DNA of 4,054 nt from a virus. Its lineage: Duplodnaviria > Heunggongvirae > Uroviricota > Caudoviricetes. Of this stretch, positions 1 to 4,054 are shown one piece after another; the first letter of the stretch is position 1; every line of letters starts with the position of its first letter. The DNA is taken from IMG/VR virus record IMGVR_UViG_2548876944_000012; one strand, 5' to 3'. The notes beneath the pieces were generated by a model that had not been told where the DNA came from, did no database searches, and saw nothing but the letters and a program-made list of their open reading frames with translations. The position numbers were made by a program, and so were the translations under genes.

Positions 1-60
1 CCGAAGAGCCTCTCATTTCGTAGCAACTTTCTTAACAACACCTTTCAACGAGAAAATCCC

Positions 61-252
61 ATGTCAGAAATAAAATCTCTGGTCACTGCTGAAGCAGTGA
101 AGGACGTCCTGCGCTCTGAAGAAGTCAGAAGCGCACTGAAACAGCAACTCCGCCAGAATCTTGAGGCGCGTCTTGATGCTGAAGTGGATGCCATTCTGGA
201 TGAGCTGCTGGGGGGATCCGTTCCTGATGTCGTACTTCACTCAGACCACTGA
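61..252 (+). CDS. Hypothetical small charged, likely helical protein (63 aa); may be the 3' end of a longer gene
   Basis: ATG at 61 opens an ORF to a stop at 250-252. The same frame has no stop from position 1, so the true start could lie upstream of the window. No convincing Shine-Dalgarno before 61. The translation (MSEIKSLVTAEAVKDVLRSEEVRSALKQQLRQNLEARLDAEVDAILDELL...) is charged with heptad-like spacing. Not recognised as a known family. Confidence 0.35.
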   Translation: MSEIKSLVTAEAVKDVLRSEEVRSALKQQLRQNLEARLDAEVDAILDELLGGSVPDVVLHSDH

Positions 253-535
253 CGGCAGAGTGAATCTGATGCATCACAGGAAAGCCGGAAACACGAAGCT
301 GGGGGAGTTCGGCGATTACGGTAACGACTGGCAGACGCTGGAGCTGGTGTTCACCGCCGGCAGTGCCACGGTTACTCCGAAACTGAATGGAGTGGCTGGC
401 CCGGCATTCCAGGTTATAAAAGACAGTCTGACACTGGGACTGAATGCGCTGACGCTGACGGATGTTACAAAAAATGCAGCGTATGGCGTTGAGATAGAAA
501 GTCTGATGCTGGAGATAAATGCACCGGCAGCATAA
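227..535 (+). CDS. Hypothetical protein (102 aa) of the prophage late region
   Basis: The ORF track shows 161-535, but 161 is a TTG and the N-terminal 22 residues (W-rich) look like the shadow of the overlapping 61-252 frame. ATG at 227 is preceded by GGGGGA at 211-216. Stop TAA at 533-535 is followed directly by a hairpin. ATG at 269 is an alternative start. Small proteins of this size are common upstream of S in lambdoid prophages, but I cannot assign a family from memory. Confidence 0.45.
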   Translation: MSYFTQTTDGRVNLMHHRKAGNTKLGEFGDYGNDWQTLELVFTAGSATVTPKLNGVAGPAFQVIKDSLTLGLNALTLTDVTKNAAYGVEIESLMLEINAPAA

Positions 536-542
536 TAAAAAA

Positions 543-572
543 AGCCAGCGCCCACTCTGAAGGACGCTGGCT
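543..572 (-). terminator. GC-rich hairpin whose poly-T tract lies on the minus strand; orientation uncertain
   Basis: AGCCAGCG (543-550) pairs with CGCTGGCT (565-572), with two further inner CC/GG pairs. On the + strand it is preceded by an A-run (537-543) and followed by TAAAAC, which is not U-rich. On the - strand the hairpin is followed by TTTTTTTATTA, the canonical intrinsic-terminator layout. It sits right after the stop of the 227-535 ORF. Confidence 0.35.
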
Positions 573-642
573 AAAACGGGTAGATGTACTTCACATGATA
601 CTTATATTTGGCAGTACATTTTCTGACAGACAGTGACGGATG

Positions 643-669
643 TTGTCAAGATATTGTGTCATTTATAAC
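643..669 (+). promoter_or_regulatory. Weak sigma70-like promoter candidate (TTGTCA, 15 bp spacer, TATAAC), possible late pR'-like promoter
   Basis: TTGTCA at 643-648 and TATAAC at 664-669. The spacer is short at 15 bp. It lies about 100 nt upstream of the strong terminator at 748-782, matching the short promoter-to-terminator unit of lambdoid pR'/tR'. Motif-level evidence only. Confidence 0.2.
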
Positions 670-747
670 CTGAATCAGGGGTTGGTCGGAATGTTATCTG
701 GCATTTTTAGCAGAGCCTGAATGCCATAATCACGGCTCCCGGAGTTG

Positions 748-782
748 GCCGTCAGTGGGTGACACTGGCGGCTTTTTGTTTT
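748..782 (+). terminator. Strong rho-independent terminator just upstream of the holin, tR'-like
   Basis: 10-bp stem GCCGTCAGTG (748-757) / CACTGGCGGC (763-772) with one G-U wobble, 5-nt loop GGTGA, then TTTTTGTTTT (773-782). The holin start is 46 nt downstream. Confidence 0.6.
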
Positions 783-827
783 CCTTTACTTTCATTTTCT
801 GTCGGCGGTGACGGAGACATACATCAG

Positions 828-1034
828 ATGGAAAAAATCACAACGGGTGTGTCATACACCACGTCAGCGGTGGGGACGGGATACTGGTTACTGCAGCTGC
901 TGGACAAAGTCTCTCCGTCCCAGTGGGTGGCAATAGGTGTACTGGGGAGTCTGCTGTTTGGCCTGCTGACGTATCTGACTAACCTGTATTTCAAAATCAG
1001 GGAGGACCGCCGTAAGACGGCGCGGGGAGACTAA
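828..1034 (+). CDS. S: Class II holin (pinholin), phage 21 S21 / 933W S-like, 68 aa
   Basis: Translation [68 protein letters not shown] closely matches my memory of the phage 21 S68 pinholin (two TM segments, SPSQW motif, basic C-terminal tail). The track ORF 759-1034 begins at a GTG inside the upstream terminator stem, so the ATG at 828 is preferred. GGAGA at 811-815. Confidence 0.85.
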
Positions 1035-1038
1035 AGCG

Positions 1039-2028
1039 ATGAAGAAAAAATACGAACTGGTTGTTAAAGAGATAAATAATTACCCGGATAAGATTGCTGT
1101 TACTGTGGCACTTGAAATTGGCGGGCATCCGTCGTTGTTGTTGCCACATGTGGCGATTAGTCTTGACCGTACTGAAGGTGCCACGCTGGAGTTCTACGAA
1201 GCTGAGGCGAAAAAACAGGCGAAGCAGTTTTTCATGGATATTGTTGCCGGGTTATGCGAAGGGGATGAACCGTCACCGGAAAAGCGCCCCGTAATTTTAG
1301 ATGCGCAGGATGTATTGATAACCTACAAAGGAAAGCTACCGGGAAGAATTACTTGTTCTCTGAAGATGCCGCCGTCAACACTGCGGTCAGAAAAAGATGA
1401 TGTTGAATCGCGTATTGAAAAACTGGAGTGCTATATCGCTGAATTGAAAAAAAGCACCCCAACAAAAAATGAGGTGCTTGCAGCAGACGAAATGAAAGAA
1501 GCTATTCCTGATCGCGCGGCGAATCTAAGCTGCGCTTCATGGTTGAAAGAGCATCTTCAGCAGCCTGAAAAAAAACGCCGCGATGAGCAGTTTGCTGCGT
1601 TTTACGATTATTGCCGGAAAGTGATGAGCAGAAATCTCGCAGAGTGTTTCAGTATTCATAATGATAATTTCAGTGACCTGGAATGGGAGTGTAACCGGCC
1701 ATCCTTTGTTGTATCCGGTGATGCTGGGAAAATAACCATCTCAGAAAATGGAAAAGTAACACCGCCATCGCACCAGCATAGTGAGGAGCTCATTGAATTT
1801 GCCATTGATTACCTGAAGAACAATAAAAAGCAGGGGCTGATGAAGTGCATTGGTCGTTGCATGGGATATCTGCAGATAGCTGCTGAGATTGAAGCGCTGG
1901 CCAGTGGTGCGGACAAGGATGCAGTTGTGCGGGAGGCTCTTCTTCGTGATTTTGATAATCCGCCCTTTAAAAAAGTGCCGGCTTACTGGTTTCATCCAGG
2001 ACTGACTTATCTTAAAGGACGTATATAA
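1039..2028 (+). CDS. Uncharacterised 329-aa protein inserted between holin and endolysin; function unknown
   Basis: Long uninterrupted ORF. ATG at 1039 lies 4 nt after the holin stop, with GGGGAGA (1024-1030) inside the holin 3' end, which suggests translational coupling to S. No TM segment, signal peptide or catalytic motif that I recognise. Lys/Glu-rich with several Cys (for example CIGRC near the C-terminus). By eye it is more AT-rich than the flanking S, R and Rz genes (not computed). Confidence 0.8.
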   Translation: MKKKYELVVKEINNYPDKIAVTVALEIGGHPSLLLPHVAISLDRTEGATLEFYEAEAKKQAKQFFMDIVAGLCEGDEPSPEKRPVILDAQDVLITYKGKLPGRITCSLKMPPSTLRSEKDDVESRIEKLECYIAELKKSTPTKNEVLAADEMKEAIPDRAANLSCASWLKEHLQQPEKKRRDEQFAAFYDYCRKVMSRNLAECFSIHNDNFSDLEWECNRPSFVVSGDAGKITISENGKVTPPSHQHSEELIEFAIDYLKNNKKQGLMKCIGRCMGYLQIAAEIEALASGADKDAVVREALLRDFDNPPFKKVPAYWFHPGLTYLKGRI

Positions 2029-2070
2029 GCTGGCTCGTTATCTGTTGCCGATAAATCCTGATAAATATCC

Positions 2071-2604
2071 ATGAACACCAAAATCAAATACGGCCTGTCG
2101 GCTGCCGTTCTGGCGCTGATTGCCGCTGGTGCGCCTGCGCCTGATATTCTCGACCAGTTTCTGGATGAAAAGGAAGGTAACCACACCACGGCATACCGTG
2201 ATGGTGCGGGGATCTGGACCATCTGCCGTGGTGCCATCATGGTGGATGGTAAACCTGTTGTTCCAGGCATGAAGTTGTCGAAGGCAAAATGCGCTCAGGT
2301 TAACGCCATTGAGCGTAATAAGGCGCTGGCATGGGTGGAGAAAAACATCAAAGTGCCATTGACCGAACCACAGAAAGCGGGGATTGCGTCATTCTGTCCG
2401 TACAACATTGGCCCCGGTAAGTGTTTCCCGTCGACGTTTTATAAACGAATTAATGCAGGCGATCGCAGGGGGGCGTGTGAGGCGATTCGCTGGTGGATTA
2501 AGGACGGTGGCAGAGACTGCCGTATTCGCTCAAACAACTGTTACGGTCAGGTATCCCGTCGCGACCAGGAGAGTGCGCTGGCGTGCTGGGGAATTGACAG
2601 ATAA
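2071..2604 (+). CDS. R: SAR endolysin (lysozyme, T4-lysozyme-like fold), 177 aa
   Basis: The translation has a weakly hydrophobic Gly/Ala-rich N-terminal signal-anchor-release segment (YGLSAAVLALIAAGAPAP). Glu35, Asp44 and Thr50 (EGNHTTAYRDGAGIWT) sit at the positions of the phage 21 R21 / T4 lysozyme catalytic triad. Overall it resembles the lysozymes of 933W-type phages and E. coli cryptic prophages, as recalled from memory. There is a 42-nt gap after the upstream ORF and no strong SD. Confidence 0.9.
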   Translation: MNTKIKYGLSAAVLALIAAGAPAPDILDQFLDEKEGNHTTAYRDGAGIWTICRGAIMVDGKPVVPGMKLSKAKCAQVNAIERNKALAWVEKNIKVPLTEPQKAGIASFCPYNIGPGKCFPSTFYKRINAGDRRGACEAIRWWIKDGGRDCRIRSNNCYGQVSRRDQESALACWGIDR

Positions 2605-2694
2605 GCAGAATATTTTGCTGAAAAATGCGGTTTGCTCACACGGACGGATAACACGAAATCCTGCGAACTGACAAAAACTAAGTGAATAAAAGTA

Positions 2695-2736
2695 AAAACC
2701 CCGTTTGTTGGCTGCAAGCGGGGTTTTGTGTTTCCT
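2695..2736. terminator. Bidirectional rho-independent terminator in the R-Rz gap
   Basis: AAAACCCCG (2695-2703) pairs with CGGGGTTTT (2719-2727), 9 bp. On the + strand it is followed by TTTTGTGTTT; on the - strand by TTTTTACTTTTATT. Confidence 0.5.
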
Positions 2737-2763
2737 GACTCTGGAAAAGTCAAAGGAGAAAGT

Positions 2764-2901
2764 GTGTTTGATTTTAGCAAACTGATTCGGGAGATTCGAG
2801 TGATGGCTGAAAAATTATCCACCTGGAAGTTCATTCTTATCTGGCTGGTGTTTGTGATTATGGCCTCCGGTTATTTCATCGGTCAGATACGCTGGTGGTG
2901 A
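2764..2901 (+). CDS. Small hydrophobic single-TM peptide (45 aa from GTG 2764, or 32 aa from ATG 2803), translationally coupled to Rz
   Basis: AGGAG at 2754-2758 sits 5 nt before GTG 2764; an in-frame ATG is at 2803. Translation ends ...MAEKLSTWKFILIWLVFVIMASGYFIGQIRWW. Stop TGA at 2899-2901 is 1 nt before the Rz ATG at 2903. Too short to appear in the ORF track. Coding status unproven. Confidence 0.3.
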   Translation: MFDFSKLIREIRVMAEKLSTWKFILIWLVFVIMASGYFIGQIRWW

Positions 2902-2902
2902 A

Positions 2903-3370
2903 ATGAACCGCGTACTGTGCGTGGTCATCATTGCCCTGCTGGTGGCCTGTGGTGCGCTTAGTCTGGGGCTGAATCATTACCGTGATAACGCCATAACCTA
3001 CAAAGAGCAGCGCGATAAAAAAGTCAGTGAGCTGGAGCAGGCAAATGCAACCATTACTGATATGCAGCAGCGCCAGCGTGATGTTGCTGCACTTGATGCC
3101 AGATACTCGAGGGAATTAGCCGATGCGAGAGCTGAAAATGAAACTCTTCGCGCTGACGTTGCCGCTGGTCGTAAGCGCCTGCGGATCAACGCCACCTGTC
3201 CAGGCTCCGTGCGTGAAGCCCCCACCACCTCCGGCGTGGATAATGCAACCGGCCCCCAACTGGCAGACACCGTTACACGGGATTATTTCACCCTCAGAGA
3301 GCGGCTGATGACGATGCACAAGCAACTGGAAGGGGCACAGGACTATATCCGCACTCAGTGCCTGAAATAA
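2903..3370 (+). CDS. Rz: i-spanin Rz (inner-membrane spanin), 155 aa
   Basis: N-terminal TM segment followed by NHYRDNAITYKEQRDK...RDVAALDA...AENETLRADVAAGRKRLRI...DYFTLRERLMTMHKQLEG, which is near-colinear with lambda Rz as recalled. It contains the embedded +1-frame Rz1. Confidence 0.9.
   Translation: MNRVLCVVIIALLVACGALSLGLNHYRDNAITYKEQRDKKVSELEQANATITDMQQRQRDVAALDARYSRELADARAENETLRADVAAGRKRLRINATCPGSVREAPTTSGVDNATGPQLADTVTRDYFTLRERLMTMHKQLEGAQDYIRTQCLK
3123..3308 (+). CDS. Rz1: o-spanin Rz1 (outer-membrane lipoprotein), 61 aa, embedded in Rz in the +1 frame
   Basis: MRELKMKLFALTLPLVVSACGSTPPVQAPCVKPPPPPAWIMQPAPNWQTPLHGIISPSESG: signal peptide with lipobox VSAC (Cys20), a penta-proline stretch, and a PPPPPAWIMQP...QTPL...GIISPSE core shared with lambda Rz1 as recalled. 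Lies wholly inside Rz in another frame. ATG at 3138 is an alternative start. Confidence 0.85.
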   Translation: MRELKMKLFALTLPLVVSACGSTPPVQAPCVKPPPPPAWIMQPAPNWQTPLHGIISPSESG

Positions 3371-3720
3371 GTTTTGTTGATGCGCCGTATCGTCGCTGTA
3401 TTCCCTCATTAACAGAGACCGCAGCCCGACAGGGAGACTCCTCTGCGCGAGTGTGCGGGGATAATCAAAAACGATACACACCGGGGTTTACCGCGTTAAC
3501 GGAGCGCGGCGTTGTCCCCTCATAGTCGCCTGTCCGGTGCGATGGTGGAAGAAGTCGGATGTTTATCACTATTAATTGATGACACAGAAATGGATTCATT
3601 GAATTTCAGCACGTTTTTGTATTCGTGTTATTGAACATCTGTTTATTTTACTTTTAACATATTGATAATAAAAAGAGCTGTAAATCTTTAGATGAGTCGA
3701 TTTTGTCCGGGGAAGTTCAA

Positions 3721-3858
3721 ATGGATTTTATGCTGACGGTTTCTGGTGTGGTTATCCTGTCCATTGCTTATACTGCAGATAAATATGGCTGCCATTTGTT
3801 ATCACGTATTGGCGCTTATTGTTCGTTGATGCTGATTTTCTCGTCGCTTTTTTTTTGA
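3721..3858 (+). CDS. Speculative 45-codon hydrophobic peptide ORF in the AT-rich region downstream of Rz
   Basis: Manual translation gives MDFMLTVSGVVILSIAYTADKYGCHLLSRIGAYCSLMLIFSSLFF. GGGGAAG at 3709-3715 precedes the ATG, and the ORF ends in a T9 run (3848-3856). It sits in a roughly 300-bp AT-rich stretch with promoter-like hexamers. Not in the ORF track (too short); no homology recognised. Confidence 0.2.
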   Translation: MDFMLTVSGVVILSIAYTADKYGCHLLSRIGAYCSLMLIFSSLFF

Positions 3859-4031
3859 GTAAGTTATATTAATTATAACAAATAATTTTCTGTGTTATTT
3901 TTTCAGGCTATCCCGTCAGAGGGGAAGCCTGTACTGCCGGGGAGCGAATGGAAAACTGATGTGTCCGGTAACTGCGTGTTCTGTGAACACCATGTTACTT
4001 AGACTGGCCCCCTGAATCTCCAGACAACCAG

Positions 4032-4051
4032 TATCACTTAAATAAGTGATA
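4032..4051. repeat. Perfect palindrome TATCACTT-AAAT-AAGTGATA (8-bp arms), operator-like
   Basis: Read directly from the sequence. The arms carry the TATCAC / GTGATA hexamer that forms the lambda cI/Cro operator half-site, but the 20-bp span differs from the 17-bp lambda operators. The window ends 3 bp later, so the context is cut off. Confidence 0.4.
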
Positions 4052-4054
4052 GTC

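Follow-up and report, generated by a model that had tools for sequence, protein, structure and literature searches.

The window analysed here, a stretch of 4,054 nt from a tailed-phage record (IMGVR_UViG_2548876944_000012) taken at its full length, consists for the most part of the lysis region of a lambdoid prophage. Positions 1 to 4001 are 100% identical to a prophage of Escherichia coli O55:H7 DEC5B (locus L002), in which the gene order is holin, a YdfR/DUF6645-like ORF, lysozyme, Rz, a minus-strand ylcI/ynfO-family gene and the terminase genes. Related prophages diverge from the window after position ∼4001. The features of the prophage part are as follows.

1–3999, plus strand: lysis region of a lambdoid prophage, outside the feature under study (match to the E. 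coli O55:H7 DEC5B prophage)
∼828–1034: holin
1039–2028: ORF of 329 aa
2071–2604: lysozyme
2903–3370: Rz
3123–3308: embedded Rz1
3564–3569, plus strand: TATCAC in prophage DNA, chance occurrence (also in prophages without IS2)
3800–3805, plus strand: TATCAC inside a small prophage ORF, chance occurrence (annotated hypothetical CDS, L002 6221–6358, equal to window 3721–3858)
3995–3999, no strand: TTACT, presumed target site beside the IS2 tip, equal to the stop codon and 2 nt of the ylcI/ynfO-family gene (empty site in L002)

For the intact 329-aa ORF between holin and lysozyme, the names given to RefSeq counterparts vary between "YdfR family", "DUF6645 domain-containing" and "SASA family carbohydrate esterase"; the counterpart in the 100%-identical DEC5B prophage is given as a pseudogene fragment; the annotation is inconsistent. 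The spanin genes form a typical embedded pair, with a 61-aa Rz1-type ORF in the +1 frame within the 155-aa Rz. The Rz1-type ORF has a lipoprotein-like signal (…LVVSAC…) and is unannotated in the DEC5B record.

IS2 sequence at the window edge

A direct check of the sequence found the 20-mer TATCACTTAAATAAGTGATA at positions 4032–4051, exactly where the sequence-only reading of this DNA had placed it. That reading described a perfect palindrome with 8-bp arms. According to the repeat finder, the arms are in fact 9 bp long (4032–4040 and 4043–4051) and 100% complementary, and they enclose an AA at 4041–4042 which, not being self-complementary, leaves a non-symmetric middle. No other inverted repeat in the window combines perfect arms of at least 9 bp with a spacer of at most 6 nt. 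At least one such 9-bp-arm repeat was present in 7.2% of 500 dinucleotide-preserving shuffles of the window; taken alone, a 9-bp-arm inverted repeat is unusual, not striking.

The end of the window is not prophage DNA. Positions 4000–4054 match nt 1–55 of IS2, an element of the IS3 family and among the earliest insertion sequences to be described, with 100% identity, position 4000 corresponding to IS2 nt 1. The last 57 nt of the window, searched alone, have matches at 18,445 places, both chromosomal and plasmid-borne; these are spread over 4,492 of 5,426 complete E. coli genomes, and many show 100% identity. When positions 3860–4054 were compared by megablast with the same 5,426 genomes, two classes of matches were obtained: prophage matches, which end at 4001, and a non-prophage remainder at thousands of places, with up to 41 per genome. 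None of these genomes covered both the prophage part and the IS2 tail of the query, and the window's own prophage–IS2 junction was not found in the 5,426 complete E. coli genomes, in 50,697 phage records or in the retrieved loci.

A full copy with the same left end is available in locus L001. It is an element of 1331 bp (TAGACTGG...GCAAATCCA) with a 5-bp direct duplication, CTGCT, and its CDS is annotated as "IS3-like element IS2 family transposase" with a programmed frameshift. In IS2 a programmed -1 frameshift joins orfA (HTH) to orfB (DDE/rve). The pair of ORFs has an HTH_Tnp_1 domain in OrfA (Pfam, E = 1.8e-19) and rve/rve_3 in the second ORF, and the right end carries the IRR, TGGATTTGCC...TATCACTTAA. 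In full copies the orfA ATG lies at IS2 nt 92; it thus comes 40 nt after the end of the palindrome and 37 nt outside the window. Window positions 4000–4041 read as the 42-bp IRL, 5'-TAGACTGGCCCCCTGAATCTCCAGACAACCA(A/G)TATCACTTAA-3', directly at the host boundary.

Because the tail is identical to IS2, because L001 holds a full element with this end, and because prophage homology ends at ∼4001, we assign 4000–4054 to IS2. These comparisons place the palindrome in an IS2 inserted in a lambdoid prophage, and not in prophage DNA. The exact 20-mer was also followed in viral contigs, where it stood in IS2 left-end context in 119 of 120 sampled. The sole non-IS2 copy (L157, 3657–3676) lies in an AT-rich intergenic region, directly after a stop codon, of an unrelated metagenomic phage contig.

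The palindrome is not present in the prophage without the insertion. The empty site in L002 reads ...CATGTTACT|TAATTATG. Since related prophages have this empty site, the dyad is not a prophage element, and it is missing from them because it belongs to a mobile element.

IS2 has entered the minus-strand ylcI/ynfO-like gene at its last sense codon (L002 6495–6680; the CDS end at L002 6495 equals window 3995), between Rz and the terminase genes. From the sequence at this site we infer that TTACT is duplicated at the far end of the insertion. With such a duplication, ...AAG TAA would be restored at that end, and the ylcI/ynfO-family gene would remain intact. Transcription of the late operon runs across the insertion. 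IS2 insertions can be polar on genes downstream of them, and this one could affect the terminase and structural genes in that way.

IS2 with an OrfA 95–100% identical to that of the E. coli element was also encountered in assemblies labelled Streptosporangium, Paenisporosarcina, Lamprocystis, Brevibacterium, Collinsella MAG and Geobacteraceae MAG (L047, L050, L055, L073, L074, L076). Four of these six contigs are very short (558–1543 bp), and the two MAG contigs measure 5,072 and 14,609 bp. These copies look like E. coli contamination rather than genuine residence.

The dyad, the published OrfA site and PIRL

The ends of IS2 are imperfect inverted repeats, the IRL of 42 bp and the IRR of 41 bp; in each, the outer part serves as cleavage domain and the inner part binds protein (Lewis et al. 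2012, PMC3299598). The published numbering maps exactly onto the window (TTAA at 4038–4041, ATAAGT at 4042–4047, TGAT at 4047–4050), and the features of the IS2 part can be listed accordingly.

4000–4054, plus strand: first 55 nt of IS2 (left end), ended by the window edge (sequence identity and break of host homology)
4000–4041, plus strand: IRL, reading 5'-TAG...TTAA-3' (PMC3299598)
4015–4041: binding domain of OrfAB (transposase), IS2 nt 16–42 (PMC3299598)
4032–4051, no strand: dyad, IS2 nt 33–52 (repeat finder, and homologous dyad in five IS2-group lineages)
4032–4040: left arm TATCACTTA, inner end of the IRL, "element III"
4041–4042: dyad centre AA
4043–4051: right arm TAAGTGATA, inverted copy of element III just inside the element
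4038–4047, no strand: footprinted stretch TTAAATAAGT, IS2 nt 39–48, with the OrfA/InsA repressor docking site TAAATAA at 4039–4045 (as given in PMC3299598, citing Hu et al. 1994)
4047–4054, plus strand: TGATAGTC, start of the weak extended -10 promoter PIRL, overlapping the right arm of the dyad (numbering of PMC3299598)

The left arm of the dyad belongs to a sequence shared by both ends, as local alignment of the IRL with the right end, the two being shifted by one base relative to each other, gives CCAGACA and TATCACTTAA in common. In the footprints of Hu et al., as relayed in PMC3299598, the transposase OrfAB protects IRL nt 16–42 plus nt 43–46. The operator is described there as nt 39–48 with TAAATAA, overlapping TGAT, and the window reads TTAAATAAGT at 4038–4047 and TGAT at 4047–4050. 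According to the same source, OrfA binds just upstream of PIRL, and the TGAT of nt 48–51 begins the extended -10. The TG extension of PIRL is found at nt 48–49 and its hexamer, TAGTCT, at nt 51–56, the last base being beyond the window edge. A plain scan detected no canonical -35/-10 promoter at the IS2 left end, which fits the weak extended -10 of PIRL and gives no independent support.

Published work also describes the protein side. OrfA binding is cited as repressing PIRL in both PMC3299598 and PMC3219604. The OrfA binding domain is an H+HTH bundle, and S44N is a loss-of-binding mutation in IS2 OrfAB (PMC3219604); residues 58–105 of OrfA mediate dimerisation (Lei and Hu, as cited in PMC3219604). 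The footprints of PMC3299598 were obtained with OrfAB-GFP preparations that also contained OrfA, so that the protection of nt 39–48 is not cleanly that of OrfA.

At this level the dyad is the already published OrfA/InsA operator at PIRL, ordinary and nothing new: all 55 nt of the IS2 part are identical to the IS2 left end, and the numbering of the IRL, of nt 39–48 and of TGAT agrees with the published one. The published site is the asymmetric 7-bp TAAATAA at the dyad centre, and it is never termed a palindrome in PMC3299598. The published account of IS2 thus has a 7-bp docking site and leaves the 20-bp dyad undescribed, whereas the comparative data presented below suggest that it is the symmetric arms that are conserved.

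The sequence-only reading had proposed a site for a dimeric repressor controlling the gene beyond the window. This was right in kind, as the stretch is footprinted, OrfA dimerises and orfA follows, but the owner of the site is IS2 and not the prophage. An HTH regulator gene next to the palindrome, for which that reading suggested a search downstream, does exist: in full copies it is IS2 orfA with its HTH_Tnp_1 domain.

Similar arrangements are known from other insertion-sequence families. In IS30 and IS1, an N-terminal fragment of the transposase or InsA binds an inverted repeat and represses the promoter located there (the IS30 parallel is drawn in PMC3299598), but the proteins are unrelated to those of IS2. 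Common to all is a small protein with the DNA-binding domain of the transposase, positioned on a promoter within or beside the terminal inverted repeat. In IS911, which like IS2 belongs to the IS3 family, OrfA is reported without a repressor role of the IS2 type (PMC3299598).

It is very probable that 4000–4054 represent the left end of IS2 in a lambdoid prophage and that the dyad is the OrfA/InsA operator through which PIRL is repressed. The proposed mechanism can be outlined as follows. The left arm is the innermost conserved block of the IRL; this block belongs to the domain bound by the transposase and recurs at the right end. The right arm is an extra inverted copy, restricted to the left end, which overlaps the TG and the first -10 bases of PIRL. 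OrfA/InsA, the 14-kDa product of the first IS2 gene, has an N-terminal HTH followed by a coiled-coil dimerisation segment, and its dimer may read the arms symmetrically, with one HTH per arm. OrfA bound at the dyad would block RNA polymerase, probably by steric occlusion of the extended -10, and transcription of orfA and orfAB would in this way be autoregulated. OrfA would also compete with OrfAB, which has the same DNA-binding domain, for the left end, occupancy of the dyad presumably interfering with OrfAB binding to the inner IRL, and transposition would be kept low. The combined outcome would be less synthesis of transposase and less use of the left end.

Left ends of diverged IS2-group relatives

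Copies of IS2 proper are nearly invariant and hence uninformative on selection. Diverged relatives were therefore collected from plasmids, species-representative genomes and phage records. The best 80 loci from species-representative genomes were mostly identical IS2 copies, and the distant relatives came from plasmids and phage records. Their OrfA proteins were 95, 91, 85, 83, 74, 73, 72, 66 and 65% identical to that of IS2. Every relative shows an inverted repeat where the IRL ends on its inner side, directly followed by a conserved GATAG(T/G)C, but with arms that differ.

IS2 left end: TATCACTTA-aa-TAAGTGATA
Klebsiella/Providencia type: TATCACT-taaatt-AGTGATA
Aeromonas type: CCTCTTAA-c-TTAAGAGG
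K. pneumoniae plasmid element: TATCTC-cagataa-GAGATA
Pseudomonas phage-borne elements: CCCTTA-cca/cga-TAAGGG
Burkholderia/Ralstonia phage-borne elements: CTTA-aaa-TAAG, with imperfect extension

In the Burkholderia/Ralstonia type the arm is (t)CTCTTA and the perfect core comprises just 4 bp.

Pairing of the arms is maintained despite their divergence. In an alignment of 13 sequences, 83.8% of arm cells were paired, compared with 32–61% when the partner was slid by 1–3 columns. One pair of the dyad is A:T in 7 sequences, C:G in 2, T:A in 2 and T:G in 2, and a second pair changes from T:A to C:G. None of 500 shuffles attained the pairing or covariation of the real alignment, in a sample of about five independent lineages and with a tool that scores G:T as a pair, which is not a symmetry in duplex DNA. 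When ten left ends were folded to a consensus, no helix other than the palindrome core was retained.

The dyad is specific for the left end. Right ends carry the half-site once (TATCACTTAA in IS2, TCCCGCTTAG in the Aeromonas type, CCCCGTTA in the Pseudomonas type). At the right ends of the same elements no adjacent inverted copy was found, and the best dyads there were at the background level of 3–4 bp.

The half-site also varies together with the protein. Residues 42, 44 and 48 in helix 3 of OrfA change in step with it (L001, L008, L090–L094): VAASQLFLW goes with TATCAC, VNANQLF(K/G/H)W with C-rich half-sites, and IQPSLLFKW with TATCTC. Taken together, the comparisons indicate that selection has kept the dyad, specifically at the left end, and that it is linked to the HTH protein encoded by the element itself, as would be expected of an operator at a left-end promoter, because pairing is kept while the arms change, because the dyad is restricted to the left end, and because helix 3 covaries with it. 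The sequence-only reading had looked for conservation in related prophages; the palindrome is absent from these, which have the empty site, but the dyad is conserved among the relatives of IS2.

The centre of the dyad is variable within IS2 itself. Many copies carry TATCACTTATTTAAGTGATA, the exact reverse complement of TATCACTTAAATAAGTGATA, in which the central AA (IS2 nt 42–43) is replaced by TT and the arms are the same. It was found, for example, in L012, L014, L016, L019–L021, L023 and L025, and it accounts for most copies in Shigella flexneri SFBU1023 and E. coli ECMA0423 and for 22 of 121 IS2 left ends sampled from viral contigs. The flip turns the docking site TAAATAA into TATTTAA in copies that have clearly proliferated. 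Two simultaneous A-to-T changes would be the product expected of a hairpin-templated loop inversion.

Both the comparative data and the many copies with a TATTTAA centre and untouched arms speak for arms that count no less than the central TAAATAA, which would refine the published site without contradicting it. There is an even chance, in our estimate, that the whole dyad of 17–20 bp, composed of two inverted copies of element III, is the true OrfA operator of the IS2 group, read by a dimer, with arms that co-evolve with residues 42, 44 and 48 and with TAAATAA serving largely as a spacer.

Alternative explanations and significance

A dyad in DNA and a hairpin cannot be distinguished by sequence symmetry alone, and the palindrome could act in single-stranded form. 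It would then be either a stem-loop in the 5' leader of transcripts that come from outside or from a minicircle junction, tuning translation or stability of orfA, or a DNA hairpin or cruciform formed in transposition. IS2 nt 1–110, folded as RNA, form the palindrome hairpin inside a longer helix (MFE -27 kcal/mol, z = -2.0), and the sole helix kept in the consensus fold of ten relatives is the palindrome core. The T:G state of the covarying pair in the Burkholderia/Ralstonia type is tolerated in RNA and not as a symmetry of DNA, and the common AA-to-TT flip of the centre is as from a hairpin-templated switch. However, PIRL starts inside the right arm, so that the element's own Step-I transcript is without the hairpin, and the published protein protection of exactly this stretch (PMC3299598) is direct evidence for a site in duplex DNA. 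Occurrence of the half-site at the right end and its change with the recognition helix of OrfA are likewise as for a protein site, and the helix that would sequester the Shine-Dalgarno sequence is not conserved in distant relatives. We therefore regard a hairpin function as improbable.

The Shine-Dalgarno helix itself was considered as a separate candidate. In a hypothetical read-through RNA, the IRL sequence UCUCCA (IS2 nt 18–23; L001 2020–2025) pairs with the orfA Shine-Dalgarno sequence UGGAGA (nt 81–86; L001 2083–2088), and such a helix could keep transcripts coming in from outside the element from being translated. The candidate is attractive in IS2 itself and was dropped for lack of conservation in the relatives.

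A symmetry without function of its own would require the left arm to be just the IRL end, used for transposase binding, and the right arm to be a chance or historical duplicate. Perfect inverted repeats with 9-bp arms do occur in 7% of shuffled windows, and the near-invariant copies of IS2 proper are silent on selection. Against this, a dyad is retained at one and the same position in five diverged lineages whose arms differ, the changes being found on both sides, and none has it at the right end; moreover, protein protection reaches into the right arm (nt 43–48, PMC3299598). Pure chance symmetry is contradicted by this conservation of the dyad with changed arms, and an absence of function seems very unlikely.

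The weakest explanation is that of an operator of the prophage. In the lambda operator, a pseudo-symmetric site of 17 bp with the half-site consensus TATCACCGC, TATCAC forms the outer hexamer of the half-site. The hexamer is located at 3800–3805, as the sequence-only reading had noted, and at 3564–3569, one position before the coordinates given there; another copy lies on the minus strand at 2982–2987. The whole window contains 5 matches against 1.71 expected, a number reached in 6 of 200 shuffles, and two of the five are the palindrome's own arms. The enrichment that had been claimed does not extend to the prophage part (1–3999), where the hexamer is at chance frequency with 3 matches against 1.59 expected (p ∼ 0.2). 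Within positions 3400–3999 the hexamer occurs 2 times where 0.34 would be expected (p ∼ 0.05), hexamer and region both having been chosen post hoc. A repeat search of the window found no partner arms for the copies at 3564 and 3800, and these copies are unrelated to the dyad, because other genomes have the prophage DNA around them and lack the palindrome there.

The similarity to OR and OL of lambda, the targets of cI and Cro, is limited to TATCAC at the outer edge of the half-site and to a dyad for a dimeric HTH protein that overlaps a promoter. The lambda sites are of 17 bp, arranged in tandem triplets, with the half-site TATCACCGC, whereas IS2 has one dyad copy per element, a single 20-bp site with the half-site TATCACTTA and a gap of 8 bp, not 5, between TATCAC and GTGATA. 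The greater length had already been remarked upon in the sequence-only reading. An array of the lambda type would comprise two or three operators in tandem, flanked by divergently oriented repressor genes of cI and cro type. The HTH of the cI/Cro type also differs from the transposase-type HTH_Tnp_1 encoded next to the IS2 dyad, in a sequence that is absent from related, otherwise identical prophages. The resemblance of TATCAC to the lambda operator, which that reading had pointed out, is coincidental.

An operator for cI/Cro or another phage-encoded dimeric regulator, controlling a phage gene past the window with the hexamers at 3564 and 3800 as auxiliary sites, might be suggested by the lambdoid nature of the window, by the half-site hexamer and by the two copies in 3400–3999, but it is refuted for practical purposes and has hardly any probability left, as every testable lambda feature fails (length, tandem layout, neighbour gene, related prophages), the palindrome lies wholly within DNA 100% identical to IS2, the next gene in full copies is IS2 orfA, TATCAC is not enriched in the prophage part as a whole, the two upstream hexamers have no partner arms, and all but one of the 120 viral-contig occurrences are IS2 ends.

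The practical value of assigning the dyad to the OrfA/InsA operator of IS2 is in annotation. What lies at the window edge is an IS2 inserted in the late region of a lambdoid prophage, with the lysis genes on one side and the terminase genes on the other, and no regulatory site of the phage; searches for prophage operators or repressor specificities at this edge would be misled. For the IS2 group, a left-end dyad that tracks the recognition helix of OrfA is a modest addition to the literature on IS2 autoregulation. If the whole dyad is indeed the operator, this would be no new kind of system, but a refinement of a known mechanism together with a small natural set of matched repressor–operator specificities.
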